The position numbers and the translations under genes are program-made. Of a stretch of DNA of 34,712 bases, positions 1-15,078 are shown in pieces (the stretch's first letter is position 1; each line of letters begins with the position of its first letter). The notes below the pieces were generated by a model. The model saw only the letters and a list, made by a program, of their open reading frames with translations, was not told the origin of the DNA and made no database searches. Source of the DNA: an uncultured Candidatus Saccharibacteria bacterium (GTDB lineage Bacteria > Patescibacteriota > Minisyncoccia > Phycocordibacterales > CSBR16-119); contig CAZPVH010000006.1 of assembly GCA_964589975.1 (NCBI GenBank), positions 1 through 34,712 on the forward strand. Direction: 5' to 3'.

Positions 1-32
1 ATGGTATTGGGGTTCGAGTCCCTGACCGGCAG
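1..32 (+). tRNA. 3' fragment of a tRNA gene (T-arm plus acceptor 3' strand); anticodon lies outside the window. The implied U1:A72 pair and G73 would fit Gln or Asn
   Basis: TGGGG-TTCGAGT-CCCTG T-arm at 8-24 (two G-U pairs), then ACCGGCA-G. A bidirectional terminator follows at 130-157. Confidence 0.7.
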
Positions 33-49
33 CAAACTTGAGCTAGCAC
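25..49. repeat. attL of the integrated element (B arm ACCGG, CA crossover 30-31, P' arm GCAAA-CTTGAGCTAG)
   Basis: CAGCAAA at 30-36 recurs at 12878-12884. CTTGAGCTAG at 37-46 is the exact reverse complement of CTAGCTCAAG at 12863-12872. Confidence 0.75.
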
Positions 50-129
50 GAGATGCTTACAAAATAAGCTCTCCAACTAGCCGAGATCTATACTGTAATT
101 GCATACCTGCTGAGAGCAGTATCCAGAAC

Positions 130-157
130 AAAAAAGCACCCAGTCGGGTGCTTTTTT
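130..157. terminator. Bidirectional intrinsic terminator downstream of the tRNA
   Basis: AAAAAAGCACCC-AGTC-GGGTGCTTTTTT perfect hairpin with A and T tracts. Confidence 0.85.
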
Positions 158-166
158 GTATTTGAC

Positions 167-196
167 TTGCCATATACCCCCTAGGGGGTATATAAT
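167..196 (+). promoter_or_regulatory. Copper operon promoter with CsoR-type operator
   Basis: TTGCCA (167-172), 18 bp, TATAAT (191-196). Perfect 22-bp palindrome ATATACCCCCTAGGGGGTATAT at 172-193 with the C/G tracts typical of CsoR operators. Confidence 0.85.
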
Positions 197-202
197 ATGT
201 TC

Positions 203-478
203 ATGAAATATATGGAAGATAAGAGTAAGGGGAAAATTATTCGTCGCCTCAAACTTATTGAGGGTCAGATTAGAGGTCTGCAAAAAATGGTTGAAGGTGA
301 CACATATTGCATTGACGTGATCACCCAAACTTCTGCGGTCAAACAAGGACTTTCCAATATTGAGGATTTGTTGCTCGAAAATCATCTTGGTGGATGCATT
401 CTGAATCAGGTAAAAGCTGGGCAGACTGAAAAGGCAAAGCAAGAGATTTTAAAAGTTTATAAGCTAAAGAGAAAATAA
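203..478 (+). CDS. csoR: Copper-sensing transcriptional repressor, CsoR/RcnR family
   Basis: RLKLIEGQIRGLQKMV...YCIDVITQ...ENHLGGC with the Cys/His/Cys ligands. Start placed at ATG 203 because ATG 197 abuts the -10 box. Confidence 0.92.
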   Translation: MKYMEDKSKGKIIRRLKLIEGQIRGLQKMVEGDTYCIDVITQTSAVKQGLSNIEDLLLENHLGGCILNQVKAGQTEKAKQEILKVYKLKRK

Positions 479-481
479 TTT

Positions 482-2776
482 ATGCATACACAAACATACA
501 ACGTAAAAGGAATGCATTGTGCCTCATGCTCATCTGTTATTGAAAAAACATTCAAGAAAGTCGAAGGTGTGCATTCTGCAGAAGTGAACTATGGTACAGA
601 AAAAGCGAAAGTTTCTTTTGATCCTTCCAAAACAAGTCCTCATGATCTCTCTAAGCACATCGAACCCCTTGGATATTCGCTTGAAGTACCTGAAACAGCG
701 ATGGAAATGGGTATGTCCGAAAGTGAACATGCAGCCCATCTTGGACTTAATCAGTCAAAAAAGGAAAAGCTTGCCGAAGTTGCGGACATGCGAACAAAGG
801 TGCTCTCTGCAATTCCTTTGGCAATCTTTGCAGCTCTCATTATGGGCTGGGACATTCTCGCTGAGTACAGCATTGTCCCTGCGATGAGTTATACACTCAA
901 GGAATTTTTTCACCATCTCCTTCCAATATTTGCCACCTACATTCTTTTTGTAGTAGGTAAGCCATACCTTCTTGGTTTTTATAGATTTCTCCGATACGGC
1001 AAAGCGAATATGGATACGCTTATCGGTATTGGTACGGTAGCCGCTTTTTTATACAGTTTCGCCGTCAGTGCTTTTGAGGATGTTCTTAAGCCATTTATTA
1101 ACGTCGAATATCAATACTACGATGTAACGATTGTAGTCATTACCTTTATTGCGCTTGGTAAATACCTTGAGGCAAGGTCTAAAATTAAAACGGGAGATGC
1201 CATCGAAAAGCTTCTCAATCTTCAAGCGAAAACAGCATTGGTTGTTCTTGATGGAAAGGAAATCGAGATTTCAGTAAACGATGTAAAGCACGGAGATTTG
1301 ATTATCGTAAAGCCAGGAGCAAAAATTCCTGTTGATGGTGTGATCATTGAAGGCTCATCTTTTATTGATGAATCGATGGTTACAGGAGAGCCAATGCCTG
1401 CTCAGAAAAAGATCGGTGACAATGTAGTATCTGGCACAATAAATACAAGCGGATCATTTACCTTTAAAGCCACTAAGGTTGGTTCAGAGACATTGCTCGC
1501 ACAGATTATAAAGATGGTTGAAGATGCTCAAGGAAGCAAAGCACCAATACAGGCACTGGCAGACAAGATATCAGCAATCTTTGTACCTATAGTTCTAATA
1601 ATCGCTTTTCTTTCCCTTGGTGCGTGGCTTATTATTGGGTCGCAATATTTGGGCTTTTCCCAAGCACTTTCATTCGGTCTTGTATCCTTTGTTGGACTCC
1701 TGGTAATAGCCTGTCCGTGCGCGCTTGGTCTCGCTACTCCAACCGCAATAATCGTCGGAGTTGGCAAAGGTGCTAAGGAAGGAATTCTTATCAAAGATGC
1801 GGCTACTCTTGAAAAACTCCACAAGGTAAACACAGTTGTGGTCGACAAGACAGGAACAGTAACCAAGGGAAAGCCGACGCTTATCGATATACAAAACTTC
1901 TCAAACTTGAAAGATGATGAACTTGTTTCAATCCTCGCTTCGCTTGAGAAAAAATCAGAGCATCCGATCGCACACGCAATCGTAAGCTACGCACAAGAGA
2001 AAAATATCTCAATATCTGATGTTTCAAACTTTGAAGGAATACAAGGAAAGGGTCTTAAGGGAAAGATAAAAGACACTGAATATTTTGTAGGCAATGCAAA
2101 ACTTGTGAGTGATCTCAAGATTTTATTTGACGCTAATAAGTTAGACGAGTTTACTTCACAAGGAAAAACACCAGTCATTCTTGCCACCAATGAAAAAGTT
2201 CTTGGTTTCGTGATGGTGGCAGATGAAATCAAGACCGAGTCAGTAGAGGCTATTAAAAATCTTCACGCTCTCGGCATAAAGGTAGTTATGCTTACAGGAG
2301 ATGATGAAAAGGCTGCAAAGTATATAGGGTCACTCGTCGGTATCGATGATGTTGTAGCTCATGTGTTACCGCAGGATAAGCTTGAAAAAATAAAAGAGCT
2401 TCAATCGCAAGGTCGTATTGTTGCTATGGCTGGCGATGGAGTGAACGATGCGCCCGCGCTTGCTCAGGCTGATGTAGGGATTGCTATGGGTACGGGTACG
2501 GATGTTGCGATCGAGTCTGCAGGCATCACACTTCTTGGCGGTGATATTTCAAAGCTTGTAAAAGCTATCAAGCTTTCCAAGATCACTATGCGAGGAATCA
2601 AGCAAAATCTTTTCTGGGCATTCGTCTACAACATTGTCGGTATACCACTCGCCGCAGGTGTTTTCTATCCAATCTTCGGTTGGCTTTTGAATCCTATCTT
2701 TGCTGGATTAGCTATGGCGATGTCGTCAGTCTCCGTAGTGTCGAATTCACTTCGCATTAAAGCTAAGAAATTATAA
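482..2776 (+). CDS. copA: Cu(I)-translocating P1B-type ATPase
   Basis: N-terminal GMHCASC, CPC (IACPCALGLATP), DKTGT, SEHP, GDGVNDAP, YN and MAMSS transmembrane ligands. Confidence 0.96.
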   Translation: MHTQTYNVKGMHCASCSSVIEKTFKKVEGVHSAEVNYGTEKAKVSFDPSKTSPHDLSKHIEPLGYSLEVPETAMEMGMSESEHAAHLGLNQSKKEKLAEVADMRTKVLSAIPLAIFAALIMGWDILAEYSIVPAMSYTLKEFFHHLLPIFATYILFVVGKPYLLGFYRFLRYGKANMDTLIGIGTVAAFLYSFAVSAFEDVLKPFINVEYQYYDVTIVVITFIALGKYLEARSKIKTGDAIEKLLNLQAKTALVVLDGKEIEISVNDVKHGDLIIVKPGAKIPVDGVIIEGSSFIDESMVTGEPMPAQKKIGDNVVSGTINTSGSFTFKATKVGSETLLAQIIKMVEDAQGSKAPIQALADKISAIFVPIVLIIAFLSLGAWLIIGSQYLGFSQALSFGLVSFVGLLVIACPCALGLATPTAIIVGVGKGAKEGILIKDAATLEKLHKVNTVVVDKTGTVTKGKPTLIDIQNFSNLKDDELVSILASLEKKSEHPIAHAIVSYAQEKNISISDVSNFEGIQGKGLKGKIKDTEYFVGNAKLVSDLKILFDANKLDEFTSQGKTPVILATNEKVLGFVMVADEIKTESVEAIKNLHALGIKVVMLTGDDEKAAKYIGSLVGIDDVVAHVLPQDKLEKIKELQSQGRIVAMAGDGVNDAPALAQADVGIAMGTGTDVAIESAGITLLGGDISKLVKAIKLSKITMRGIKQNLFWAFVYNIVGIPLAAGVFYPIFGWLLNPIFAGLAMAMSSVSVVSNSLRIKAKKL

Positions 2777-2778
2777 TT

Positions 2779-3786
2779 ATGAAAGCATACACATTACACG
2801 TATCGGGTACCCATTGTGCATCATGCAAAATCTTAATCGAAGATGTTTTAAATGATCAAGATTATATTAGTAGCGCACAAGTAGATTTAAAAAATCAAAC
2901 CTTACGAATAGAAACTGTGAGTGAGAAATCTCCAGAAGAATTGGCAGATTTACTTACTGAGAAGGTAAAACCAAACGGCTATACGGTATCAGTAGAAAGG
3001 GTTTTAATAGAAAAACAAAAAGATGATGTTATCTGGAAGGCACTGCCTATAGGGTTAGTATTCCTAATACTTTTCTTTGTATTACAAAAATCAGGGCTAT
3101 TAAATCTTGGTATCGGTGGCACAACCACCCCTGCCACGAGTTTTATTATTGGGCTTATTGCATCAGTATCAAGCTGTCTTGCTGTGGTTGGCGGACTTGT
3201 TCTGTCACTTTCAGCAAAAATTTCTCAAGACAACGTAAGTGATACAAAGACTTTCATGCTTTTCCATATCGGAAGACTCGTTAGTTTTGCGCTCCTTGGC
3301 GGAGTGCTTGGCTTAGTTGGGAGTGCTATAGGAATCAGTTTTACTTTTACTGCAATCCTAGGAATTATTGCGTCAATAGTAATGCTTCTATTGGGACTCA
3401 ATCTGATTGGAGTGTTCAAAAAGAATAAAGTGGCATTACCTTCAGGAATTTTTAACTTCTTCCGCAAAATAGAACACAAGACTCTAACTCCTTTAATAGT
3501 TGGATTTGCCACATTCTTCCTGCCTTGTGGTTTTACTCAATCGATGCAAGTAGTAGCACTATCTAGCGGTTCATTTATTTCAGGATTACTTATTATGCTT
3601 GCATTTGCTCTCGGTACGCTCCCAATGCTTTTACTCTTGTCGTTTGGAGGAGCATCGCTTGCTCATGGAAAACATGCACCCTTGTTCTTCAAATCTGCTG
3701 GAGTGGTAGTGATAGGTCTTGGAATATTTGCACTACTTGCAGGTCTGGCAGGGCTTGGAATTATTAATCCTTTATTTAATATATAA
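2779..3786 (+). CDS. HMA domain plus DsbD_2 / sulfite-exporter TauE/SafE-like membrane protein
   Basis: N-terminal GTHCASC, multiple hydrophobic helices, SSCLAVVGG and FLPCGF motifs; directly follows copA. Confidence 0.85.
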   Translation: MKAYTLHVSGTHCASCKILIEDVLNDQDYISSAQVDLKNQTLRIETVSEKSPEELADLLTEKVKPNGYTVSVERVLIEKQKDDVIWKALPIGLVFLILFFVLQKSGLLNLGIGGTTTPATSFIIGLIASVSSCLAVVGGLVLSLSAKISQDNVSDTKTFMLFHIGRLVSFALLGGVLGLVGSAIGISFTFTAILGIIASIVMLLLGLNLIGVFKKNKVALPSGIFNFFRKIEHKTLTPLIVGFATFFLPCGFTQSMQVVALSSGSFISGLLIMLAFALGTLPMLLLLSFGGASLAHGKHAPLFFKSAGVVVIGLGIFALLAGLAGLGIINPLFNI

Positions 3787-3793
3787 TTATTTT

Positions 3794-4195
3794 ATGAACA
3801 AAACCGCTTCAATCATTATTACTTTAGCCCTTGTGGTAGGTCTCGGCATTATATTTGTCGGTGGATCAAAGTCGGGAAACTCTAATACTGATTCAATACA
3901 GCAAGCCCAAAACGTAGAGATACGAGATGGCGTTCAATATATAACGATTGATGCTAAAGGCGGATATTCTCCAAAAATATCTTCTGCCAAAGCAGATATC
4001 CCTACTAAACTAGTTGTCAAAACAAACGGCACATATGATTGCTCATCGTCCCTGGTGATTAAATCTATTGGATATCAAAAAATCCTAGCTCAAACTGGAG
4101 AGGAAATTATTGATATCGGTACACCGAAAGCTGGTGTACCACTGCAAGGAGTTTGTGGTATGGGAATGTATAATTTCTCGATCAGTTTTACTTAA
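3794..4195 (+). CDS. Cupredoxin-like exported or membrane-anchored protein
   Basis: N-terminal signal or TM helix, GGYSP...DCSSSLVI...CGMGMY. Start placed at MNKT (3794), just after the upstream stop. Confidence 0.75.
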   Translation: MNKTASIIITLALVVGLGIIFVGGSKSGNSNTDSIQQAQNVEIRDGVQYITIDAKGGYSPKISSAKADIPTKLVVKTNGTYDCSSSLVIKSIGYQKILAQTGEEIIDIGTPKAGVPLQGVCGMGMYNFSISFT

Positions 4196-5511
4196 GGTAA
4201 ATAGATTTGTTTTTCTTTGAGTAAAATTTTACTCTTGAAACAAGTAAGCAGTTCTCGTTTTTCTTCGATAGATCCATCTTTCAAAATAAACTTTGCGTAG
4301 TCTCGTATGTCTACATCTTTTATTTGTATTTGTTGTTTGATATTCAGAACCGATTGATTGAATCTTTTGATTCGCTCAACTTCAGTTTTGATTTTCTCTT
4401 TCATTCCGATCTCATTGATATTAATGTGATCAAGTAGCTTCTCAAATTGTTCAATAAGCTCGACTTCGTTAATGTAGCCACATTTGCAGTACTTATCTTT
4501 TGATTTCGTACAACTGTAGTAAACATGTCTGTTCACTGATCCGTCTTTAAGTTTCTTAAACTTTTCATCTGCACAGATACCAGATTCGCACAGACCACAC
4601 GACATCATTTTTGTGAAAGCGAACTCCTTCGGCTCTTGTACTCGTAATACTTGGCTTTTTACTTGCCCTTGAACCTGATCATAAAGTTCCTTAGATATAA
4701 TCGGTTCATGTTTTCCTGTATAGAAATTGCCACTCTTCTTAGGGTATTCAAAAACCCCATAGTAGATGGGGTTCTGCAGTATAAGATATATGTTACTGAG
4801 AGTGAGTCCTTTGTTGCCGTTTCTTGTCTTAAAGTTTAGCTCAAACTTGAGCCAATGGAAAAGCTTTCTGCCTGACCATTTTTCATACGCTACTTTTTCA
4901 AACATTTGCTTTACTATCGGTGCTCGTTCGGTATCTATAACAACTTCACACTTTTTATCCATTCGTTTTTCGTTGAGATATCCAACAACAGCAGGACCAG
5001 GGCGAAGCCCCATCTCACATCTTGTTCGTAAACCTCGTTTTACATTGATACTTTTATTATCGTTCTCGAGTTTTGCTTGGGAACATAGAATCATTAAAAG
5101 AAACTTCTCATTTGGAGAATTTTTGAAGTGTTGTCCATATGTTCTGATTTCAAGAAGTTTTGTCTCGTCCATAAGGTCAACTACTGATCCTAGATCTCCT
5201 GCATTTCTTGATAGACGATCAGGTGCCCAGGTGAGTATTCCGTTATACCTACCACGCCTTATATCCTCTAATACCTCTCTAAACACTGGTCGTTGCCCAG
5301 ATTCTTTAGCTGAGTGAGATTCACGTCTAATATCAACAACTGTTAAGCCATCACGGTCGGCTATAGCAAGCATTTCCTTAACCTGTGATTCGATAGACAG
5401 GGCTTGTTTTTCGTCTGATTCGGTTGATTTTCGAGCGTACAGGACATACCGAATCTTGGTTTTGGGTACCTCTGTCCTTACTCCTAAATTGCTTATATAT
5501 TGCGTCTCCAT
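4192..5511 (-). CDS. Large serine recombinase (resolvase, recombinase and Zn-ribbon domains)
   Basis: YARKSTE catalytic motif, ESHSAK, DRLSR, and C-terminal CGLC...YYSC...CKC. Start placed at METQ (5511); the ORF is open from 5529. Confidence 0.93.
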   Translation of the reverse strand: METQYISNLGVRTEVPKTKIRYVLYARKSTESDEKQALSIESQVKEMLAIADRDGLTVVDIRRESHSAKESGQRPVFREVLEDIRRGRYNGILTWAPDRLSRNAGDLGSVVDLMDETKLLEIRTYGQHFKNSPNEKFLLMILCSQAKLENDNKSINVKRGLRTRCEMGLRPGPAVVGYLNEKRMDKKCEVVIDTERAPIVKQMFEKVAYEKWSGRKLFHWLKFELNFKTRNGNKGLTLSNIYLILQNPIYYGVFEYPKKSGNFYTGKHEPIISKELYDQVQGQVKSQVLRVQEPKEFAFTKMMSCGLCESGICADEKFKKLKDGSVNRHVYYSCTKSKDKYCKCGYINEVELIEQFEKLLDHININEIGMKEKIKTEVERIKRFNQSVLNIKQQIQIKDVDIRDYAKFILKDGSIEEKRELLTCFKSKILLKEKQIYLP

Positions 5512-5583
5512 ATTATATTGATGACGCAATTTGAGCGTTTTGCTAAGTCTATGCAGAACTAGCGAAATATTGCATACTCGCGA

Positions 5584-7080
5584 CTACTTTTTTTGATCCA
5601 TATCTACATAATCCCTAAAGTACAAAGGTTCATCATCTCCCATCCAGTACATAAGCCAAGTAGATTCTCCTGAATGCTTGTCCATGGTTGAGTTGATCAA
5701 TAGAGAAAACGCATCTGCTAAGTCGTCATGTTTTTCAACCCCAAATCCAACAAGTTGCTCAATTAACTGCTCACATCCTTGTCTTGGGAATTTAATCTTT
5801 CCTGACTTAATAGCTGTTGAGGTGAGAGCAAGTCGTGTTCTTTTGTCTCCCTTTGGTTTAATCGCCGTTGCTTTAACTCCTTGATGTTCAAGCATTTGAG
5901 GTAATGCTTCTTGATATGCAACACTTTCGACAAAAAGCTCATCGGAATGTTTTTTAAGTATAGTGTTACGAACATCTTTCATGAGATCAACCTGTGCAGG
6001 GAAATTAAGTTTTTTTGCAATAGGATTTGGAAGTATGTATATACACATTTTTTCTCGACGAGAATATATGTGAGCAAATACGACAGCTGTATCATCAGCA
6101 ACTTCTGATCCTGAAATCGCAAGATCTACTCCTGCGTAGGTACCACGATAACCACGATGTTTTTCTCCTGGCAGTTCATCATAGAATTGAATCCATTCTG
6201 GATAAATAACTTGATCATCGCTTGGAATAATACGGAGCAAGTATTCTCGTTGCCAAGATATTTCACTGGCAACTTTTAATTTCTCTTCTTCCAGGTCTTT
6301 TTCGGTTGCATATTTTCCAGACCACAAACACACCCCGTTTTTATCAATCAACGGATACTCTTTAAATATTCCTTTTGCTTTACCTTTAGAGATTTCGTCT
6401 TTGATACGCATTAACAACGAATCTTCGTGGAGTAAGTTACCAACAATAATGAGTCGAGTATTTCTGTCACCAGCAGGGATCACTTCACCTCGGAGCCAGT
6501 TATAGGTCTTTTCTCGACCCTCACGAGTTTTTGTAGATTGAACATCTTCAACGTCATCGCAGATGATGAGATCAGGACGGTGTTCATTGTGGCGAATTCC
6601 ACGGATACTCTGTTCGGCAGAAGCCACAGTGATTCTTGCCCCGTGTTTCTTGAACACGAGAGAGAATGAACCCCATTCGTCACTTTCTTCTTGAAAAGGT
6701 CCAAGGTCTTTTTTAAGAACGTCATTGCCCTCAAGTTCAGTACGGATATTCATCATGTGTTGTTTTGCCTGTGCTCGTGTTTGGCAGAATATAATACAAA
6801 ACTTCTTTTGTTGTTTTCCGAGGATTGCCCAGATTGGGTATGCTGTTGTGACCATGGTCGATTTTCCTGATCCACGAAATGCAACCACATATAAGTTTTC
6901 AGTAGTACTTTTTTCGAGATTATGAATAATCTCTTTTTGAAAATCTGCTGTTTCGTATTTCACATAGTGTGCATAGTAGAAATGGAAAAAATACAAGAAA
7001 CTATCTTTAGTAATTGATGTTCGCACTGATCTATCTTTAATCATAGTATTCACCAGTGCTTTTGGAATTATTTTAGTCAT
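5584..7080 (-). CDS. Phage terminase large subunit-like ATPase/nuclease
   Basis: Walker A AFRGSGKST, Walker B LIICDDVED, coupling motif IIVGN, RNase H-like nuclease motifs GVDLA, VESVAYQ and HDDLADA. Confidence 0.88.
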   Translation of the reverse strand: MTKIIPKALVNTMIKDRSVRTSITKDSFLYFFHFYYAHYVKYETADFQKEIIHNLEKSTTENLYVVAFRGSGKSTMVTTAYPIWAILGKQQKKFCIIFCQTRAQAKQHMMNIRTELEGNDVLKKDLGPFQEESDEWGSFSLVFKKHGARITVASAEQSIRGIRHNEHRPDLIICDDVEDVQSTKTREGREKTYNWLRGEVIPAGDRNTRLIIVGNLLHEDSLLMRIKDEISKGKAKGIFKEYPLIDKNGVCLWSGKYATEKDLEEEKLKVASEISWQREYLLRIIPSDDQVIYPEWIQFYDELPGEKHRGYRGTYAGVDLAISGSEVADDTAVVFAHIYSRREKMCIYILPNPIAKKLNFPAQVDLMKDVRNTILKKHSDELFVESVAYQEALPQMLEHQGVKATAIKPKGDKRTRLALTSTAIKSGKIKFPRQGCEQLIEQLVGFGVEKHDDLADAFSLLINSTMDKHSGESTWLMYWMGDDEPLYFRDYVDMDQKK

Positions 7081-7082
7081 AA

Positions 7083-7490
7083 TTATTTTTTACGATTAAT
7101 ATTTTTAATAGATTTCGACTTGGTAATTTTTGCGAGTTTGAGTGCCTGCTTTACAATTTTCGCTTGTGACGGTGTTAGTTCCTCGTTGTCATCTTTAGTA
7201 GTAATCTCAAGTTTGTTCTTGTAATTATCATTTCGGTGACGAAGCCAAAAACTAATCGCAGGATAGTTTTTCTCCTTGATAAGAGTTAGTAGTTGGCTTT
7301 CACTCATGTCATTTACCAAGGCGACACCTTCAGAAAGTGCATTGTCCATTTTCTTGAGAAATTCTTTATCATCTTTTCGCCAACGATAGACACTATTACG
7401 AGATAATCCTGTTTTCTCACATGCCACCTGAACGATTGGCACTTTTCGCAGTTCATCAAGGAACTGGTCTTGAAATTTATTCTTTTTCAT
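7083..7490 (-). CDS. HTH protein, terminase small subunit-like (phBC6A51-type HTH)
   Basis: IVQVACEKTGLSRNSVYRWRKDDKEF HTH; lies immediately upstream of terL with a 2-nt gap. Confidence 0.65.
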   Translation of the reverse strand: MKKNKFQDQFLDELRKVPIVQVACEKTGLSRNSVYRWRKDDKEFLKKMDNALSEGVALVNDMSESQLLTLIKEKNYPAISFWLRHRNDNYKNKLEITTKDDNEELTPSQAKIVKQALKLAKITKSKSIKNINRKK

Positions 7491-8754
7491 AGAAGTTCTT
7501 GATTACTTGTGCTTTACGACCAGTAAGTTTTTCGTACCGACGAATCGCTAAATCACAAAACACAGGTTCTATCTCTAGGGAATAGACCTTCCGACCTAAT
7601 TGCTCCGCACAGATCATAGTGCTAGCAGATCCAGAGAAGGCATCAAAAATGATGTCTCCTGGTTTAGTGCAACGCATTATAAACTTGTGATGAAGTTCAG
7701 GATTTTTACTCGTTGCGTGTTCCATTTGATTTGAAGGTAGTCGTTTTGTCGCCCAAATGTTTGAAACATCTTCTAGAAGTTGATTACCAGTTCCGTAATC
7801 TTTGTTTTGAACTTCATTTAGATTTCTTACGAGATCTGAAATATATGGAGATCCTTTCGTGCCATACACGCAATACTCAAGGCACTTATTGAACGCAACA
7901 GTTGGTGTCGGTGATGAATTGTTTTTAACCCAGACATTAAGTCTTCGGTTCTTAACTCCATTTTCCATATAGAGCGTTTGAAAAACCCACACCCAGGCTT
8001 CATCACACCAGAAAGCGACGTGTACATCTTTGGTAGATACGGTTAGTGAAGATTTTAGAACCTTGCGAATAAATTCTTTATATTCTTCAGGTGATTGGTT
8101 ATCGTCAAAAGTTCCTCCGTAGTTGGATTTATTACCAACACCTTTGTCGTATGAAAGCCCGATATTAAAAGGTGGATCATTATAGATAGCCGTGGCTTTA
8201 TCATTTCCGAATAGCTTGGTGACAGCATTCATATCGGTAGAACTGGCACATAGCAACTTATGACCACCCATGATGATAAGATTACCCGGCTTTGTTTGTG
8301 GTGTTTTTATTTTCTTTAACTCTTTATCGACATCGAATTTGTCGTCTTTTGTATCTTTTTCCTCGTCCCAGAACTTAACCAGTTCTTTTTCGTTGAATCC
8401 AGCAAACTGCAAAAGCTCTAGGTCAAAAGATTTAAGCTTTTTAAAATCCCATTCACCATCATTAATATTGCTTTCAATTGCAATCTTGCGACGCTCGTCG
8501 TCTGATAGTTTACGATCAGGGATTAATACATTTACTTGTTTGATACCAAGCTGTATCAAAGCAGTTTTTCTTTGGTTGCCTGAGATAATGGTGTTATCCG
8601 TATCAATGACAATTACACTATGAAAACCATTTTGAATGATTTTCTCTTTTAATTTTTCCATAGCGATCTTTGAGATTTTTCTTGGATTTTCTTTCCAAGG
8701 GAGTAGGTCTTTGACCTCTCGAACTCCTGTTTTCCATGAAGGTTTTTTATTCAT
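7477..8754 (-). CDS. ParB/Srx N-terminal domain fused to an N6A/N4C DNA methyltransferase (beta order)
   Basis: PWKENPR...IISGNQR ParB-like N-terminus; motif IV DPPF precedes motif I FDAFSGSAST. Confidence 0.88.
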   Translation of the reverse strand: MNKKPSWKTGVREVKDLLPWKENPRKISKIAMEKLKEKIIQNGFHSVIVIDTDNTIISGNQRKTALIQLGIKQVNVLIPDRKLSDDERRKIAIESNINDGEWDFKKLKSFDLELLQFAGFNEKELVKFWDEEKDTKDDKFDVDKELKKIKTPQTKPGNLIIMGGHKLLCASSTDMNAVTKLFGNDKATAIYNDPPFNIGLSYDKGVGNKSNYGGTFDDNQSPEEYKEFIRKVLKSSLTVSTKDVHVAFWCDEAWVWVFQTLYMENGVKNRRLNVWVKNNSSPTPTVAFNKCLEYCVYGTKGSPYISDLVRNLNEVQNKDYGTGNQLLEDVSNIWATKRLPSNQMEHATSKNPELHHKFIMRCTKPGDIIFDAFSGSASTMICAEQLGRKVYSLEIEPVFCDLAIRRYEKLTGRKAQVIKNFYEKE

Positions 8755-8863
8755 AGAGTTGTTATTTGATTACTTATAAATTTGTAGATGACTAATCTAC
8801 TAACTCTATGAAATCAAAAAGGTACATAGGCATGTAATTGGCATAAAATTGAGTAGCATAAAG

Positions 8864-8885
8864 AAAAAACGCCTATTTAAAGGCG
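8864..8885 (-). terminator. Intrinsic terminator downstream of the 8929-9552 gene
   Basis: Minus strand CGCCT-TTAAAT-AGGCG-TTTTTT; short stem. Confidence 0.55.
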
Positions 8886-8928
8886 ATTTTTCAAAGTTAT
8901 CCACTCAACTTGGTGTCAACTTAGGAAT

Positions 8929-9552
8929 TTATTCTTTCTCTATGTGTATTTTGGGATTGATACGATACCCAGATCCTTTCTTTCCTTGAATGAGTTTTGT
9001 TTTCTTTGGAAGTCTTAGGGTGTTGATCGCATAGTCATTAAAAGTTTGAACAATTTTTGCTACAGCTGATGATGAAAGCATTACCTCAAGTTCTTTTGTC
9101 TTTACATATGTACCACGGTCAAGAAGTATTTCAAGCAACTGCTTTCTTTTACCGTTTTCAGTGAGATCGTATGAAAAAAGTTTGCCACCTAGGTGTCTAT
9201 CGAGTGATCCGTTTCTTGTATCATAAATAATTACATTGCTGTCTTGGCTTGAAGATAAAAGTCGCTTGTGGTTTTTGTTTAGTTCTTGAAGTTCTTCCAA
9301 GATGTCATATTCAACAGGACGACGGTATACGATTTCAGGATATTCTACTGGTTCAAAAAGTTTTACTTGTTCTCGAACACGATTCATTTGTTCAATGATA
9401 GGCTGGGCAATTTTTCTCACATTTTCAATCATTTCGGCATGTTTTCTTCCAATTTCTTGGAATTGAGAAATCTGCCCCTCACTCAAAGCAGGGGGATGTA
9501 TTTTTACCACCAGTTCACCGACAGTCATTGGTTTTTTCTGGTCATTTTCCAT
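8929..9552 (-). CDS. Hypothetical protein with a probable C-terminal winged-helix DNA-binding domain
   Basis: 207-aa ORF with a leaderless TGcTATGAT promoter 6 nt upstream; C-terminal LLEILL...AVAKIV...GKKGSGYRIN resembles a wHTH wing. Confidence 0.6.
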   Translation of the reverse strand: MENDQKKPMTVGELVVKIHPPALSEGQISQFQEIGRKHAEMIENVRKIAQPIIEQMNRVREQVKLFEPVEYPEIVYRRPVEYDILEELQELNKNHKRLLSSSQDSNVIIYDTRNGSLDRHLGGKLFSYDLTENGKRKQLLEILLDRGTYVKTKELEVMLSSSAVAKIVQTFNDYAINTLRLPKKTKLIQGKKGSGYRINPKIHIEKE

Positions 9553-9610
9553 AAAGACATCATAGCAAATACTTGCTTTTTTGTATAGAGTAATTTATAC
9601 TATTTATACC
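9553..9610. promoter_or_regulatory. Divergent promoter region of the wHTH gene and the LexA-like gene
   Basis: Plus strand TTGCTT (9573-9578), 17 bp, TATACT (9596-9601); minus strand TG-C-TATGAT (9567-9559). Inverted repeats AGCAA-N4-TTGCT and GTATA-N8-TATAC. Confidence 0.55.
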
Positions 9611-10228
9611 ATGACAAATAACCTTAGTGATAAAGATAAAAAAGCATTTGCCCTTATCCGTAATAAGATTGTTCACTATGGCAAAAGCCCTACGCTTAGC
9701 GAGATTAATGAGGTTACAGGTGGAGCTTCTCCACGATCTGCAAGCCTTGTAATTAATCGACTAATCGATGCAGGACTTATAAAGAAAATCGGTCGACAGC
9801 TTATCCTTACCGGATCACAAACAACAGCTTCAATAAGCACTGTTGATGTTCCCTTGGTAGGTGCTGTGACATGTGGTACCCCTGTTCTTGCTGAAGAAAA
9901 TATTCAAGCTTTGATTCCTGTATCAACAGGTCTAGCTAAAAAGGGTTCGAAATATTTTCTTTTGCGTGCAATTGGAGACTCTATGAATCTTGCAGGAATT
10001 AATAGCGGTGATCTGCTTTTGATTCGACAGCAAGACACAGCAGAAGATAATGATAAAGTTGTTGCTCTTATAAATGACGAAGCAACCGTCAAAGTGTTCA
10101 AGAAAGCGAATGGTGCTGTTGTACTTCAACCGAAGTCAACGAATAAAAACCACAAGCCGATTATATTAACAGATAATTGTATCATCCAAGGGGTAGTCGT
10201 TGCTGTGCTTCCTGGTGATTTATATTAA
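9611..10228 (+). CDS. lexA: LexA-family autocleaving repressor (wHTH plus peptidase S24)
   Basis: SPTLSEI...SPRSASLVINRL wHTH, predicted cleavage site VTC/GTP, catalytic GDSM Ser and ATVK Lys. Element-borne, so not necessarily the host SOS repressor. Confidence 0.88.
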   Translation: MTNNLSDKDKKAFALIRNKIVHYGKSPTLSEINEVTGGASPRSASLVINRLIDAGLIKKIGRQLILTGSQTTASISTVDVPLVGAVTCGTPVLAEENIQALIPVSTGLAKKGSKYFLLRAIGDSMNLAGINSGDLLLIRQQDTAEDNDKVVALINDEATVKVFKKANGAVVLQPKSTNKNHKPIILTDNCIIQGVVVAVLPGDLY

Positions 10229-10232
10229 ATTT

Positions 10233-10472
10233 ATGGCAAAGAAGAATATACATACCGTATTTAACAAAGAAAGAAAAATGTGGGAGACAAAAAAAGAGGG
10301 ACAAGAAAAACCTTTAGTCTCTTCTCATACTAAAGAAAAAGCATTAGAAAAATCTATAATCGAGGCAAAGAAGAATAAGGTTGAGCACGTTATTCATAAC
10401 AAGGATGGGAAAATATCAGATAAGGATAGTTATGGAAAAGATCCTAATCCTCCTAAAGATAAAAAGAACTAA
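10233..10472 (+). CDS. DUF2188 family small protein
   Basis: HTV...WETKKEG...TKEKA...VIHNKDGKI..KDSYGKDPNPPKD pattern. Confidence 0.8.
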   Translation: MAKKNIHTVFNKERKMWETKKEGQEKPLVSSHTKEKALEKSIIEAKKNKVEHVIHNKDGKISDKDSYGKDPNPPKDKKN

Positions 10473-10475
10473 TTT

Positions 10476-11276
10476 ATGAAAAAGACTCAACAGCCCATAA
10501 AAAGACCCGCAAACCTATCTTATGATGAGATGAAAATTGCTATTCCAAAAATTGAAAGAAGGATTCAAGATCTAAAAAATTTTGATATCAATTCTGTTTC
10601 AAAGCAATTTAGTCCTGAAGTTAAAGCGCTAGAAACTAAGCTTGAGCAATTTCTTTCAGATTTATATTCTCCTGATACGGTTGAACACGATAAATACAAT
10701 TGGAGTCTGACAAATATTGATTGTCAGACAATGAATATGATGTACGAAACTCCTCTGCACGAGGTCCGGCATGCAATAACAGAAAATATAGCTAGAGCGA
10801 TCTCTGTACTAGAGGCAATCAAGGGTCATTTTTCTGAAACACTTGAAGATGCTGGTGTGTTGGGATCTGTAAAGCCAATTAAGGCATATGAGGGACTTGA
10901 ATTACATCCTGCTATAGCTAAAGCTTCTAGTAATTTATATAAAGATGGTCACTATGCCAATGCTGTTGAAGATGCTGTAAAAGCATTAAATGCGTTAGTT
11001 AGATTAAATAGTGGTGTGGATGATAAAGATGGAACACAGTTAATGGAATCAGTTTTTAGCCCTAAAAACCCGATTCTTAAAATTAATAATCTTATCGATC
11101 AATCTGATATTGATGAGCAAAAAGGTTTTATGAATCTTTTTTCTGGAGCTGTTTCTGGCTTAAGAAACCCAAGAGCCCACAAAATAATTAAAGATGATGC
11201 TGAAATGGCACTTGAATTCATAGCTTTTATTAGTCTTTTGGCAAAATTTGTAGATAGATCTGTAAAAGTAAATTAA
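10476..11276 (+). CDS. TIGR02391 / Ymh-domain protein (HEPN-like, RxxxxH)
   Basis: C-terminal LHPAI...GHYANAVEDA...DGTQLMESVF...EQKGFMNLFSGAVSGLRNPRAH. Confidence 0.82.
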   Translation: MKKTQQPIKRPANLSYDEMKIAIPKIERRIQDLKNFDINSVSKQFSPEVKALETKLEQFLSDLYSPDTVEHDKYNWSLTNIDCQTMNMMYETPLHEVRHAITENIARAISVLEAIKGHFSETLEDAGVLGSVKPIKAYEGLELHPAIAKASSNLYKDGHYANAVEDAVKALNALVRLNSGVDDKDGTQLMESVFSPKNPILKINNLIDQSDIDEQKGFMNLFSGAVSGLRNPRAHKIIKDDAEMALEFIAFISLLAKFVDRSVKVN

Positions 11277-11283
11277 TTTAACT

Positions 11284-12579
11284 ATGGATGAAAAGAAGAA
11301 TTATTTCATTAAGTTTTTAACTCGATATCCTGAGCTTTTAAAAAAGGCGACTGGTTTAGATAATGAATCATTTTCAAAACTAGAATCTAGCTATCTGTCA
11401 AAAGTAAAATCAAAGGAAAGATATATATACGATGCATGTTTAAGACTTCAACAAGTTGGCTTTTTCTATATAAGAGCTGATGACCTAATTAACTCTTCAA
11501 AAAAGGATGATTTTACTACTGATACTGGAATTAATCTTGCCTTATCTCTAGAAAAGGAGCTGATGCTCTGGTTGCGTTCGTTGCACGAATTATTTGTATA
11601 TAGTTTCCTTTTTAGATCCACAAATTCAGATAAGTATTTCAGATATTATTTTCTATCTAGGGCACTTGAAGCTTTTGCTAAACGAGCAAAAAACAAAAAA
11701 GAGTTTTTTGGAATGGATAATTTAAATGAGAATGAGCAACCAATAAACAAAATATTAAATGAAATAAATTTATTAGAGTCTGGTGGTGGTATTAAAAATG
11801 CTAAGATATGGTTTGTAAAAGAATCAAAACTCAAAAGTCGGTTTATCAGTACTTTTAAAAGAAGAGAATTTAGTGATATTGGGGATTCTTACAGATCTTT
11901 ATTTAAAAAGGTGTTACCTAAACTGGCTCCTTCTCAGCGTATAGCACTTGGTCTTGATTATGGATACTACAGTGAACTTAGTGAGGCAATCCACAATAAT
12001 ATAGGAGGACCTAAAAAGTCCGTTGTTTACAGTAAAGATTATTTTGATGCATACCTACAAATATTACCTCTTGTCGCAGGTCATATAATTTTAAATCTTA
12101 GTAAAATACTAAAGAAAAAAACACCTGACCAGTTAAAAGATCTTGAGAAGATTTTAATAAAAGGTTTTGATAATTCTATCTATAAACTAAACAAGAAAAA
12201 ATTATCTAAATCTGATTACGTATTAGTAAATGGAATCACACTCGGACGTGTATTAAAAGTTATTAATACAAAATATGGTTATCAGTCTGTTTTAGTCGAA
12301 CATATTGATTCTAGTGGATGGAAGCCAGGCGAAGAAGTCTTTTCTTCGGATAAGATAATATGGTTATTTGATCAAAGCAAAATAGAAAAGGATTTCAGGA
12401 AAATTTTAAATGAACATGGGACTAAAGTGAGAATTTCAAAAGATAAATTAAATAAATTACTAGATGAAAGTGTGAATAATCTTTGGCATAATATGGGTGC
12501 AAAAGAACATTTTTTCGGAGACAAGGAGGGTGCATTAAGGAAGATAAATGAAAGTATGAAAAGTAACACGGTGGTGTAA
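11284..12579 (+). CDS. Hypothetical protein, very AT-rich; weak DUF5677/HEPN-like YxxLSxxxH motif
   Basis: 431-aa ORF, operonic with the Ymh gene (7-nt gap); contains YYSELSEAIH. Confidence 0.6.
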   Translation: MDEKKNYFIKFLTRYPELLKKATGLDNESFSKLESSYLSKVKSKERYIYDACLRLQQVGFFYIRADDLINSSKKDDFTTDTGINLALSLEKELMLWLRSLHELFVYSFLFRSTNSDKYFRYYFLSRALEAFAKRAKNKKEFFGMDNLNENEQPINKILNEINLLESGGGIKNAKIWFVKESKLKSRFISTFKRREFSDIGDSYRSLFKKVLPKLAPSQRIALGLDYGYYSELSEAIHNNIGGPKKSVVYSKDYFDAYLQILPLVAGHIILNLSKILKKKTPDQLKDLEKILIKGFDNSIYKLNKKKLSKSDYVLVNGITLGRVLKVINTKYGYQSVLVEHIDSSGWKPGEEVFSSDKIIWLFDQSKIEKDFRKILNEHGTKVRISKDKLNKLLDESVNNLWHNMGAKEHFFGDKEGALRKINESMKSNTVV

Positions 12580-12618
12580 CTTTTTATACTCAAACCTGTG
12601 TCACTTTTGTCACTTTTT

Positions 12619-12789
12619 ATGAAGCAAGAATATAAAAGAAATCCCAAAAATTGGACTAAGGAAGAAACCGATAGAGTGGTGGCAGTTTTTCAGTGGCTAT
12701 TAGAACAAGATAAAAAACAGAATCCAGATAGATATAAACTGCCGAAAGGAGTTGTATTGGATAAAGACGGAAATCAAGTAATTTTATAG
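12619..12789 (+). CDS. Small hypothetical protein (56 aa) next to attR
   Basis: ATG at 12619 after a T-rich leader; MKQEYKRNPKNWT...FQWLLEQDKKQNPDRY. Confidence 0.55.
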   Translation: MKQEYKRNPKNWTKEETDRVVAVFQWLLEQDKKQNPDRYKLPKGVVLDKDGNQVIL

Positions 12790-12859
12790 GTGCTCAAAGA
12801 CCATCGAAATGATAAGATAGGAGTATTAAAAATGTCCTTACAGGGCTTGACCGACCACG

Positions 12860-12884
12860 GTTCTAGCTCAAGACGGCCAGCAAA
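12860..12884. repeat. attR of the integrated element (P arm CTAGCTCAAG-ACGGC, CA crossover 12878-12879, B' arm GCAAA)
   Basis: Inverted counterpart of 37-49 (12 of 13 positions) plus the 7-bp direct repeat CAGCAAA. Confidence 0.75.
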
Positions 12885-12902
12885 AGATTATTCTTTTTGA
12901 AA

Positions 12903-13670
12903 ATGAAAGATATTTTATTCATGTGGCAAGATTTAATCGGAGCAATTATAGGAGCTTCTGCACCCTTTATTTTATGGTGGTTTGCAGGAAAATATAGCCG
13001 CTATAATAGACGCAAAGAAGATTTATACTATCTCCATAGAACTATTGCAGATCAAATAAATACGCTTCTTGATACTAGAGATACTATTACAAAATTTATT
13101 AACGAAAAACTAACCCAGCTTATCGATAAACCTCGACCAGAGAATGACACTCAATATTCTGTTGACTTAGCATTCTTCCCTCTATTCTCTTCTCATCCTC
13201 TTGGAGATGACGTACATGTAAAGAGTACTGGCAGTGGATATGTAGATAATAAAATTGCTAGGGCTTATAAACTGTCAAAAGATCTACCCTACATAATTGA
13301 CGATTTAAGGCGACAATTTAAAGAGACTCTGGACTTTAATAGAGAAATTTCTTTCAATAAACTTAATCCTCCGCCATTCCAGAGAGCCAGCTATCTTAAA
13401 GATGTTAGTGAATACAGAAAGGTTCTTATAACAGAAATGTTGCAACAGAATATACCGATTTCGCTAAAAATTCTAAGTGAAGCCCTGGTCTCAATTGTCG
13501 AACTCCGAGAAATTGGACTAACTCGCTGGAAACTAAAATTCGATACTAGATATAGGTTTTATCTAACAAAGTCTAAGCAACGAACAGCCGCAGAAAAAAC
13601 TTATGAAAATATTGATTCGTACCTAAAACCTAAAGTAACCAAGCAGCTAGAAGCTTTTAGTAGTTCTTAG
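12903..13670 (+). CDS. Hypothetical protein with an N-terminal membrane anchor
   Basis: AT-rich ORF of about 255 aa with hydrophobic LIGAIIGASAPFILWWF. Confidence 0.6.
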   Translation: MKDILFMWQDLIGAIIGASAPFILWWFAGKYSRYNRRKEDLYYLHRTIADQINTLLDTRDTITKFINEKLTQLIDKPRPENDTQYSVDLAFFPLFSSHPLGDDVHVKSTGSGYVDNKIARAYKLSKDLPYIIDDLRRQFKETLDFNREISFNKLNPPPFQRASYLKDVSEYRKVLITEMLQQNIPISLKILSEALVSIVELREIGLTRWKLKFDTRYRFYLTKSKQRTAAEKTYENIDSYLKPKVTKQLEAFSSS

Positions 13671-13852
13671 AACCCTTTCCAGTTCACATCTTACCCTCCG
13701 ACTTCAAAAAAGCGATCAATATCGAGAAGAAAGCGGCGGGTAAAAGGTCAGGTACCTTTTATTTATATTATGTTGCTAAAAATATCTTTAAATGGTATCC
13801 ATATCTCGGTACTAGTCCTTTGATTTAAACCTAACCCTCTAACCAAACAGAC

Positions 13853-14683
13853 ATGTTTGTTCGTGTAGCGAAAAACGCATTTGCCCACCTTCTTTGGAGA
13901 TGGATTCTCCGGAAGAATGGCCAGTTTATTGCCTGGCTTGATCTATTCTACTTGGGACCAACTCGTGGAATGAATGACTATGATGACCTTGCCTCAAACT
14001 ACAAGGGATCAAACGTCAAACCCGACAAGATGTACTCGATCCTTCCGACTGTCCTCCAAATGGTCGGAGACTGCCGAGGAAAAACCGTCATTGATCTGGG
14101 ATGCGGTACAGGATTTTTCACACTTCCTCTGGCGGAAGCTGGGGCGTCTGTCGTCTGTGGTGTCGACAATTCTCTTTCGCAAATCAATCTAGCGAAAGCG
14201 ACATCTCCTCACCCGAAAATCAGCTACTCTGTCGGCGACATATTCGAGCAGCATTGTGGTCCCGCTGACATCATCAATGCTCCGTTCGTTGCAAACTATG
14301 CGCGGACAATCCCGGTGCTCAAACATTTCCTCGGACTTGTCTTCAACTCACTCAGAGAAGGAGGCAAAGCCGTGTTTGTCATCGATCTGCCAAACGGAAA
14401 GAGCCTGAAGAGATTTGGTGCCACAAAGACCTTTTTGGGACCGAGGGCTGATGAGACGAATATCCGGATAGATCTCTTCAACGAAGAGAAGAAGATCTGC
14501 TCCCTTATCGGTGTGTATTACCATCCCGAGACGATGGAATCTCTACTACTTGAGGTGGGCTTCCGGACGGTTTGCTGGCACAAGCCAATCGTTTCCAATG
14601 AGGGAATCCAATTGCTCGGCAATGATTTCTGGAAAGGATACACGGATGATCCTGAGCTCGGCTATCTGACTGCCCTGAAGTGA
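13853..14683 (+). CDS. Class I SAM-dependent methyltransferase (start may be ATG 13970)
   Basis: VIDLGCGTGFFT motif I, VCGVDNS, GDI; followed by a terminator. Confidence 0.88.
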   Translation: MFVRVAKNAFAHLLWRWILRKNGQFIAWLDLFYLGPTRGMNDYDDLASNYKGSNVKPDKMYSILPTVLQMVGDCRGKTVIDLGCGTGFFTLPLAEAGASVVCGVDNSLSQINLAKATSPHPKISYSVGDIFEQHCGPADIINAPFVANYARTIPVLKHFLGLVFNSLREGGKAVFVIDLPNGKSLKRFGATKTFLGPRADETNIRIDLFNEEKKICSLIGVYYHPETMESLLLEVGFRTVCWHKPIVSNEGIQLLGNDFWKGYTDDPELGYLTALK

Positions 14684-14716
14684 AGACCGCACCTATCGAA
14701 TGGTGCGGTCTTTTTT
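14683..14716 (+). terminator. Intrinsic terminator
   Basis: AAGACCGCACC-N8-GGTGCGGTCTT followed by TTTT. Confidence 0.85.
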
Positions 14717-14757
14717 ATTTCCTATATTCCAACACATCCCCTGGCTGGCGGTCGAGC

Positions 14758-14785
14758 AAAAAGAAAGCCCCATTTATGGGGCTTT
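14758..14785 (-). terminator. Intrinsic terminator for the minus-strand pspC-like operon
   Basis: AAAGCCCCAT-TT-ATGGGGCTTT with an A tract on the left. Confidence 0.7.
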
Positions 14786-14799
14786 GGCGTTGTTCTGTG

Positions 14800-15078
14800 C
14801 TAGAGAACAACCGCCACAGGATCTTTCCTTTCTTTCTCATATTGGTAGTACTCCGCTCCTTCAGCTGACACCATGATCCACGCGACCCACTTGTCGTAGG
14901 ACGGCTTATCAGGCCAAACCGTCACGCTGATGAAGTCGCCGTTTTCCATCTGAAACAAAGTCGCCACATTCTGGCCAAGTCCCTTGGCAACGTCTCTGGT
15001 TATCCGCTCCCAGTCCATCTTGAACTTGATGTGCTTCTCCTCAGGGATTGCCCATCTATAGATCCTTACGATGCTCAT
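14800..15078 (-). CDS. Small protein, possibly dimeric alpha+beta barrel (ABM-like)
   Basis: Start placed at MSIVRIYRW, 23 nt after the pspC stop; beta-alpha-beta pattern with F.SVTVWP.K.SY..W. Confidence 0.5.
   Translation of the reverse strand: MSIVRIYRWAIPEEKHIKFKMDWERITRDVAKGLGQNVATLFQMENGDFISVTVWPDKPSYDKWVAWIMVSAEGAEYYQYEKERKDPVAVVL

Follow-up and report, generated by a model that had tools for sequence, protein, structure and literature searches.

An island at the 3' end of a tRNA-Gln gene in Patescibacteria, very probably inserted by its own large serine recombinase

The DNA analyzed here, referred to as the window, is a stretch of 34,712 nucleotides (contig CAZPVH010000006.1, positions 1 to 34,712) from an uncultured Candidatus Saccharibacteria bacterium. 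It starts within a glutamine transfer RNA gene (tRNA-Gln), which is followed by a copper operon, a large serine recombinase gene, genes for terminase subunits and a LexA/CI-type repressor gene. Positions 32-12879 (12,848 bp) very probably constitute an integrative island that was inserted at the tRNA-Gln gene's 3' end by this recombinase. The host of the island is a member of the Patescibacteria, i.e., an ultra-small bacterium.

Ends of the island and junctions in relatives

The island is bounded by a left and a right attachment junction (attL and attR), which would derive from an attachment site of the element (attP) and one of the host (attB). The following features define the two ends:

1-32, plus strand: 3' part of tRNA-Gln (variable loop, T arm, 3' strand of the acceptor at 25-31, discriminator G at 32), assigned by identity to tRNA-Gln(CUG) of loci L028 and L046
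Up to 29, plus strand: host-side (B) half of attL, within the tRNA-Gln 3' part
30-31, no strand assigned: proposed crossover CA in attL (tRNA nucleotides 71-72), where the host-specific sequence ends in about 38 tRNA junctions and where the dyad is centered
32-56, plus strand: P' half-site, GCAAA + CTTGAGCTAG + CACGAGATGC, supplying G73 (junction comparison; matrix score 36.2)
12836-12849, plus strand: conserved block CCTTACAGGGCTTG, 29-41 bp from the crossover, found in Gln- and Ser-type right arms
12853-12877, plus strand: P half-site, GACCACGGTT + CTAGCTCAAG + ACGGC (junction comparison; matrix score 38.6)
12878-12879, no strand assigned: proposed crossover CA in attR; contigs of relatives depart from the window at 12878-12883
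12880-12905, plus strand: B' side of the original target (GCAAAAGATTATTC...), comprising the old discriminator and the tRNA trailer (sequence reading)

No tRNA was called at the window start in an ARAGORN scan, because the window starts within the gene. Bases 1-32 are identical to the 3' part of ARAGORN-called tRNA-Gln(CUG) genes in L028 and L046, and by the numbering of these tRNAs the CA occupies positions 71-72 and is followed by the discriminator G73. Upstream parts of tRNA-Gln were found as loose contig ends, and uninterrupted tRNA-Gln genes in the window's own sample read ...CAGCAAA-AATAC....

Both end sequences were confirmed by direct reading as originally predicted, with ACCGG-CA-GCAAA-CTTGAGCTAG at 25-46 and CTAGCTCAAG-ACGGC-CA-GCAAA at 12863-12884. 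The 22-base pattern of the right end (CTAGCTCAAGNNNNNCAGCAAA, with up to two mismatches) had a single match in the window, and 100 dinucleotide-preserving shuffles yielded no match. The terminal arms are perfect 10-bp inverted repeats, both 5 bp away from a CA. Rejoining them yields ...GGTTCTAGCTCAAG-ACGGC-[CA]-GCAAA-CTTGAGCTAG-CACGAGATGC..., a layout of 10 + 5 + 2 + 5 + 10 with the dyad on CA and, when the arms are extended, a match of 12 of 13 bases, in agreement with the earlier description. The two island ends are alike in 11/13 bases (GACCGGCAGCAAA / GACGGCCAGCAAA), and a manual count gave 12/19 matches between the right (P) arm and the tRNA T arm plus acceptor in the same register. The predicted attP junction is CTCAAGACGGCCAGCAAACTTGAG and the predicted attB junction of the window host is CCCTGACCGGCAGCAAAAGATT. 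The only exact direct repeat at both junctions is CAGCAAA (7 bp); in other hosts, only CA or CAGC is common to both. A position-weight scan of positions 1-15000 recovered only the two terminal attachment sites and no internal inverted site of this kind. One sequence considered as an internal site, CTAGCTCAA at 4085 near the 3' end of the integrase gene, scored below the scan threshold, lies inside the cupredoxin open reading frame (ORF), and was rejected as a chance resemblance.

Junctions were surveyed in relatives of the window, in 80 genome loci and in 30 metagenome loci, which are designated here by L numbers. Among 43 distinct left junctions of the tRNA class, nucleotides 71-72 are CA in 37 cases, TA in two, GA in two (tRNA-Asn) and CC in two (tRNA-Ser). 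Subtraction of a few misclassified right arms leaves about 38 tRNA-joined left junctions, corresponding to 35-40 distinct alleles, mostly of tRNA-Gln. Copies of the same island (95-100% identity) adjoin no fewer than 30 different tRNA-Gln alleles, the joint always lying at 71-72 and being followed by GC(A/C)AA-CTTGAGCTAG; four acceptor strands (ACCGG, GTCCCG, GTCCGG, and GTCAGG), for example, are each joined at CA to GCAAACTTGAGCTAG / GCAAACTTGAGCTAGCACGAG. At the other end, about 25 independent junctions were identified by eye as ...GGTTCT[A/G]GCTCAAG-(G)ACG(G)C-CA-, continuing into an unrelated flank or another P' arm, and in an automated count 22 of the 33 sequences matching the pattern had CA-GC. 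After the right end ...CTAGCTCAAGACGGC-CA comes GCAAAAGATT in the window and GCCAAGTTGTGC in L006, L008, L011, and L014. Contigs of other metagenomes agree with the window without a mismatch as far as 12879-12883, beyond which the sequences are unrelated. Exact-protein look-ups retrieved the same island from contigs of other samples at 95.8-99.9% identity with unrelated flanks; the look-up with CopA returned no match.

An empty site was found in L104, which reads tRNA...GTCCAAGTCCCG-CA-GCCAAGTTGTGC or, in its fuller form, GTATCTTGGTTCGAGTCCAAGTCCCG-CA-GCCAAGTTGTGC.... L104 is identical to the right flank of the occupied locus L011/L101 (100% over 1803 nt). L110, from the same sample as L104, is identical to the left flank (100% over 2089 nt) and ends in ...CCCGCAG, and by our own reading of the alignment its last 30 nt or so coincide with the beginning of L104. 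Therefore, one and the same strain exists with and without the island, the difference being bounded by CAGC. This junction, tRNA...CCCG-CA-GCCAAG, lies where the original prediction had placed it, and no empty-site junction elsewhere, such as near 13.8 kb, was found. The predicted extent of 12.85 kb is likewise borne out by the roughly 38 left junctions, the roughly 25 right junctions and the one empty site.

Junctions in which a right arm is joined through CA to a left arm occur in L007, L026, and L128, with variants in L004, L015, L016, L022, L033, L040, and L042. Wherever this could be checked, they represent different elements lying side by side. We read them as tandem arrays and not as circles, and the predicted attP sequence occurs in nature in this form. 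The attB right half is conserved only as GC plus A-rich sequence. In L104, the right half of the empty site (GCCAA-GTTGTGCAAG-GTTATCCCGCACGAGACGCG) is similar to a left arm that belongs to another island type, seen in L022, and the island at the L104/L011 site probably entered beside an older resident or its remnant. The resemblance was noted between L104:27-70 and the L022 right end, where the left arm of the other family reads GGTTATCCCGCACGAGA(C/T)GCG; consequently, incoming islands seem to target the left junction of a resident element.

The serine recombinase and the position of the crossover

According to domain scans of the ORFs, the only recombinase aboard the island is a large serine recombinase, and no tyrosine-recombinase or transposase domain was detected in the scanned ORFs between 197 and 12789. 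Its catalytic resolvase-type domain (PF00239, E 2e-20, residues 29-174) is followed by a recombinase domain (PF07508, E 1.7e-15, residues 201-291). The protein also matches the PHROG integrase family phrog_95 (1e-58). The motif YARKS aligns with YLRRS of SPbeta SprA, which is the best relative of solved structure (9dxh, E 2.6e-12). Among 50,697 deposited phage records, no integrase is more than 28% identical to the island's enzyme. In species-representative genomes, 149 relatives were confirmed by a scan; the 80 of them that are listed are 67-94% identical and belong nearly all to Patescibacteria. Most full-length relatives comprise 439-449 amino acids (aa), and no split tail was seen.

When all loci are turned to the orientation of the window, a plus-strand tRNA-Gln gene is located to the left of close relatives, and tRNA-Ser, tRNA-Trp, or tRNA-Asn to the left of more distant ones. 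In a quick maximum-likelihood tree, whose deep branches are provisional, a clade of 31 integrases (support 99) contains only tRNA-Gln users among the rows with a known tRNA. A clade of 42 rows (support 89, below the star threshold) contains mostly tRNA-Ser and some tRNA-Trp users. The clustering of clades with tRNAs was reached in none of 500 shuffles. The recombinase encoded at 4192-5529 can thus be inferred to catalyze island integration, as had been proposed, being the sole recombinase aboard and having a phylogeny that follows the tRNA used. The claim of a new integrase and attachment-site pair at a tRNA 3' end is qualified in that the pair proves to be one member of a large Patescibacteria clade and not a single case.

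The original prediction placed the crossover at CA. The same-strain comparison confines the exchange to CAGC and the comparative data overall to CAG(C). The right junctions of L034 and of a contig from run X6 share only CA, and A72 is the sole base common to every site. The arm dyad is centered on 71-72 in both Gln- and Ser-type islands, and on grounds of this symmetry a staggered 2-bp cut on CA is the probable one. The same island and enzyme might instead use a staggered cut on AG, i.e., on the last acceptor base and the discriminator (tRNA 72-73), which is rather unlikely. The native tRNA-Gln of L037 and of L114/L125 carries A2:U71, and the left junction retains T at position 71. In L037, for which both ends were seen, the right junction has C at this position. 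The left junction accordingly reads ..GGT-AG-CAAAC and the right one ..CGCC-AG-CAAAT, so that position 71 follows the left-hand partner at both, as an AG cut would have it; L114/L125 represent a second U71 host with an island, and the same-strain comparison narrows the exchange no further than CAGC. It is established for phiC31 and Bxb1 that the central dinucleotides of the partners must match. Consequently, the T and C at position 71 of L037 call for an AG cut, a tolerated T:G mismatch or a change after integration. An AG cut, on the other hand, would lie one base off the dyad, given that the arms are 5 bp from CA in Gln-type and from CC in Ser-type islands. Moreover, the right junctions of L034 and the X6 contig read CA-AC.. 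though the P' arm has G73, and an entire sub-family carries CA-ACCAA, so that mismatches would then be needed in these cases. The predicted CA crossover is thus narrowed to CAG(C) and preferred by symmetry, with AG as the weaker contender.

The limits of the island and its enzyme class might also be questioned. The GC content (fraction of G and C) ranges from 0.30 to 0.42 over the first 13.7 kb or so and is about 0.50 further to the right, which first hinted at a boundary near 13.8 kb. In such a scenario, the island would extend to about 13.8 kb, where GC rises after staying at 0.32-0.37 until about 13.7 kb, or a tyrosine integrase or transposase would have inserted it, with the 10-bp repeats being transposon ends and a 2-bp target duplication. 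The island ends indeed resemble terminal inverted repeats flanked by a short direct repeat. This explanation is nevertheless extremely improbable: the contig of every relative departs from the window at 12878-12883 and not at 13.8 kb, the empty site joins the tRNA straight to the sequence right of the CA, the domain scan speaks against both enzyme classes, and insertion is specific to one tRNA position over about 38 tRNA junctions. In none of the comparisons does the low-GC stretch 12885-13700 belong to the island, and a boundary drawn from GC content is contradicted by every junction. A further alternative is that the window island arrived by means of its serine integrase and is now a fixed remnant, immobile without a directionality factor or helper. 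The contigs of its own sample contain neither a circle nor an empty site, structural phage genes were not found in it, and neither attP nor the right or left arm had a match when the viral contigs of IMG/VR were scanned. Fixation is still rather improbable, as all genes are full length when compared with relatives (the methyltransferase is intact here and split in L006), near-identical copies exist across several hosts and samples, one strain is polymorphic and a second host in the window's own sample carries the island.

Several observations weigh against the interpretation as an intact island moved by its own serine recombinase. The zinc-ribbon domain PF13408 of the recombinase scores 22.2 bits and thus below the Pfam cut-off of 25.3, with its cysteine pairs visible in the alignment. 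The position 71 discrepancies of L037 and L114/L125 described above belong here as well. Canonical serine integrases (phiC31, Bxb1, LI) are not known to recombine with a left junction in the absence of a directionality factor, and the tandem arrays imply just such recombination with a resident left junction. No excision factor was identified among the island genes, capsid, portal, and tail genes were not found in the island by Pfam and PHROG scans, and neither the empty attB of its own host nor a circular attP was seen among the assembled contigs of the window's own sample. With these points considered, insertion by the serine recombinase is still favored, and the window island is inferred to be intact and excisable.

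Gene content and copper cargo

Window ORFs were annotated by Pfam and PHROG profile matches, resulting in the following gene order:

197-478, plus strand: CsoR-type copper-sensing repressor, cargo (PF02583, 4.9e-23)
482-2776, plus strand: CopA-type heavy-metal P-type ATPase, cargo (PF00122, PF00702, PF00403)
2779-3786, plus strand: membrane protein with HMA and DsbD_2 domains, cargo (PF13386, 1.3e-32; PF00403)
3794-4195, plus strand: cupredoxin-like protein, 133 aa as called in L006/L011, the longest ORF starting at 3719 (PF13473, weak, 2e-5)
4192-5529, minus strand: large serine recombinase, 445 aa from TTG or 439 aa from 5511 as in relatives (PF00239, PF07508, phrog_95)
5584-7080, minus strand: terminase large subunit (phrog_38, 6e-80)
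7083-7490, minus strand: helix-turn-helix protein resembling a terminase small subunit (phrog_4044, 8.5e-10)
7477-8754, minus strand: ParB-N and N6/N4 DNA methyltransferase (PF01555, 3.6e-28; phrog_498, 1e-71)
8929-9552, minus strand: 207-aa protein kept in L006, L007, and L011, no Pfam or PHROG match
9581-10228, plus strand: LexA/CI-type S24 self-cleaving repressor (PF00717, 1.2e-26; phrog_4)
10200-12579, plus strand: three accessory genes, encoding DUF2188, Hypoth_Ymh and a DUF5677-like 431-aa protein (domain scan)
12598-12789, plus strand: small ORF of 56-63 aa beside the right arm, no family match, kept in L006/L011, L007, L014, and the short L015/L019 form

The terminase large subunit is at most 28% identical to the terminases of Mannheimia phage vB_MhM_3927AP2 and Haemophilus phage SuMu. 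The small ORF at 12598-12789 might encode an excision factor.

The recombinase gene ends 4 kb from attL, as the original prediction had noted. The distance itself was confirmed, yet it constitutes no anomaly: the interval of roughly 4 kb that separates the integrase gene from the left junction is a cargo slot, filled here by a CsoR-CopA-HMA/DsbD-cupredoxin copper operon. In the Gln clade, attL and the integrase 3' end are always 2.3-6.7 kb apart, and in the Ser clade 0.2-1.8 kb. Relatives with the same copper operon vary beyond the integrase; in L012 and L020, SNase and other genes replace the terminase, and L015 and L019 are short forms of the copper-operon island. In L005:1-510, the copper operon (96% identical from window position 82 on) is located behind an unrelated, GC-rich upstream sequence that lacks the left arm, which indicates that the copper cassette also moves independently of this island.

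The arms exhibit further conserved elements. The outer motif TAGCACGAGAT of the left arm is conserved across Gln-, Ser-, and Trp-type relatives. Block CCTTACAGGGCTTG, also present in L056, L059, L079, and other loci, sits outside the usual 25-bp half-site and may be an accessory binding site. A small ORF across attR/attP (MSLQGLTDHGSSSRRPA...) was dismissed, having an ATG only in Gln-type islands and an ATA in Ser-type islands; the block is accordingly conserved as a motif of DNA or RNA and not as a peptide. Directly after the tRNA, the left arm (window 37-52) forms a near-palindrome around CTAG, CTTGAG-CTAG-CACGAG, which is perfect as CTCGTGCTAGCACGAG in some relatives (L050, L040, and L092 examined). 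Judged by its sequence, this palindrome could double as a hairpin for tRNA 3' processing or termination.

To the right of the island, positions 12885-13830 (GC 0.32-0.37) separate the right junction from the first host gene of high GC content and contain an orphan ORF of 257 aa (12897-13670) without a Pfam or PHROG match. This segment may be left over from a previous occupant of this tRNA site. The idea that 13794-13835 is a decayed tRNA fragment was considered and rejected, the resemblance being weak beyond ATGGTAT.

Tandem arrays, possible retargeting, and relation to known systems

The surveyed family follows a common design of arm, 5 bp, a dinucleotide at 71-72, 5 bp and arm. The central dinucleotide is CA in Gln, CC in Ser and Trp and GA in Asn (L139, L048). 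Islands of the Ser and Trp types continue after the tRNA with G-CCA-(A)-10-nt arm-CACGAGAT. The Ser-type locus L056, for example, has the attL ...CGCCT-CC-GCAGA-GTCGTGTTAG and the attR CTAACACGAG-TGTCC-CC-GCAAATC, 18.4 kb apart. The left arms of many relatives read G-CCA-A and rebuild the discriminator and CCA, whereas that of the window (G-CAAA) rebuilds the discriminator only. The predicted repair of the tRNA discriminator by the element is thereby corroborated, with G73 being supplied by the island and CCA also in many relatives.

Two loci illustrate variants of tandem arrangement. L035 and L039 (JAQTUL010000010.1) represent two related integrase genes located 12.7 kb apart on one contig, and the tandem junction between them reads GACGC-GA-GCTAA-CTAGAGCTAG with a G at position 71. 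In L141 (Ga0075111_1000115), tandem single-gene units of 0.7-1.0 kb occupy positions 780-3600, within which no integrase is found. These units open with CA-GCCA(A/C)-CTTGAGCTAGC and close with ...CCTTACAGAG(C/T)TTGA...GGTTCTAGCTCGAGATCGC-CA; each holds one ORF (182, 278, and 191 aa) of secreted or membrane-anchored appearance by eye. Units of about 80 bp holding only a tRNA 3' fragment are also present, and the arrangement is reminiscent of integron cassettes arrayed on serine-integrase sites.

In the proposed mechanism, the integrase would recombine its quasi-palindromic attP with an attB whose left half is the tRNA-Gln T arm and acceptor strand and whose right half comprises little beyond G-C and the A-rich trailer. 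A cut on CA would keep the host tRNA to A72 at the left junction, with the island giving G73 and, in many relatives, CCA. Recognition might proceed almost wholly through the tRNA-side half-site; resident left junctions would therefore be reusable, and islands as well as single-gene, integrase-less cassettes would stack in tandem. Retargeting could occur by a changed central dinucleotide and inner arms. The repressor would link control to DNA damage, and cell-to-cell transfer might take place as a phage-related or satellite-like element. In two separate island-bearing tRNA-Gln backgrounds (L037:5177-5248; L114 and L125), A2:U71 has replaced the G2:C71 pair. Given a cut on CA, excision would be blocked by this replacement, and such a compensated 2:71 change of the tRNA by the host may lock the island in. 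More broadly, it is conceivable, though we would not yet call it probable, that a Patescibacteria-wide clade of serine recombinases is specialized on tRNA 3' ends, cutting at 71-72 and rebuilding the discriminator and CCA by its left arm, that it has been retargeted among Gln, Ser, Trp, and Asn, and that it forms an integron-like accretion platform.

Targeting of tRNA genes is treated as a property of tyrosine integrases. According to a 2014 database paper, only tyrosine-family integrases were known to target tRNA genes (PMC4383910); reviews place the targets of serine integrases inside genes, and a 2026 survey reports that tyrosine integrases prefer RNA genes as targets. Full-text searches turned up no account of serine integrases at tRNA ends or in Patescibacteria; large island databases may hold uncommented cases. 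The natural presence and absence data define attP, attB, attL, and attR of a serine integrase to within four bases and illustrate a way for an enzyme with a two-base crossover to use an essential gene without breaking it. The finding also shows that a copper-resistance operon has recently spread between different Patescibacteria of wastewater and sludge. Compact integrases of about 440 aa, whose target is highly conserved, are candidates for integration tools in Patescibacteria, for which genetic tools are few, and candidate new orthogonal integrase and attachment-site pairs in general.

The island shares with phage large serine integrases (A118/LI, SPbeta SprA, TP901-1, phiC31, Bxb1) the order of resolvase, recombinase and putative zinc-ribbon domains, a short quasi-palindromic attP with attB identity limited to a few bases at the dyad, and hybrid attL and attR sites without a long direct repeat. 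Here, attB, attP, attL, and attR have the identity block CAGC in common, and the symmetry of the arms centers on CA. In contrast to these systems, whose targets are protein-coding or intergenic, the island targets and repairs a tRNA 3' end, has an almost unconserved attB right half and a cargo slot between attP and the integrase, commonly accretes in tandem and resides in Patescibacteria. With the tRNA islands of tyrosine integrases (P4-like, Islander-type, and many integrative conjugative elements) it has in common the tRNA 3' target, a look-alike of the tRNA end that restores the gene, tandem pile-up at one tRNA and metal-resistance cargo. It differs from them by the absence of a tyrosine integrase and by a direct repeat of 2-7 bp instead of 15-50 bp. 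DDE transposons are unlike the island, which contains no transposase domain and whose insertion is confined to tRNA nucleotides 71-72.

Phage satellites (PICI-like) are similar in size (about 13 kb), in combining integrase, repressor, and terminase genes without capsid or tail genes, and in their accessory cargo; unlike them, the island also encodes the large terminase subunit and a serine-type integrase. In SCCmec cassettes, Ccr serine recombinases insert cargo at the 3' end of rlmH without destroying the gene, and tandem or composite arrays are formed. The island resembles these cassettes in its large serine recombinase, in carrying cargo at the 3' end of a conserved translation gene and in forming arrays, and it is distinguished from them by a single recombinase gene instead of the ccrAB pair, by a tRNA instead of a protein gene as target, by its terminase genes and by its occurrence in another phylum.

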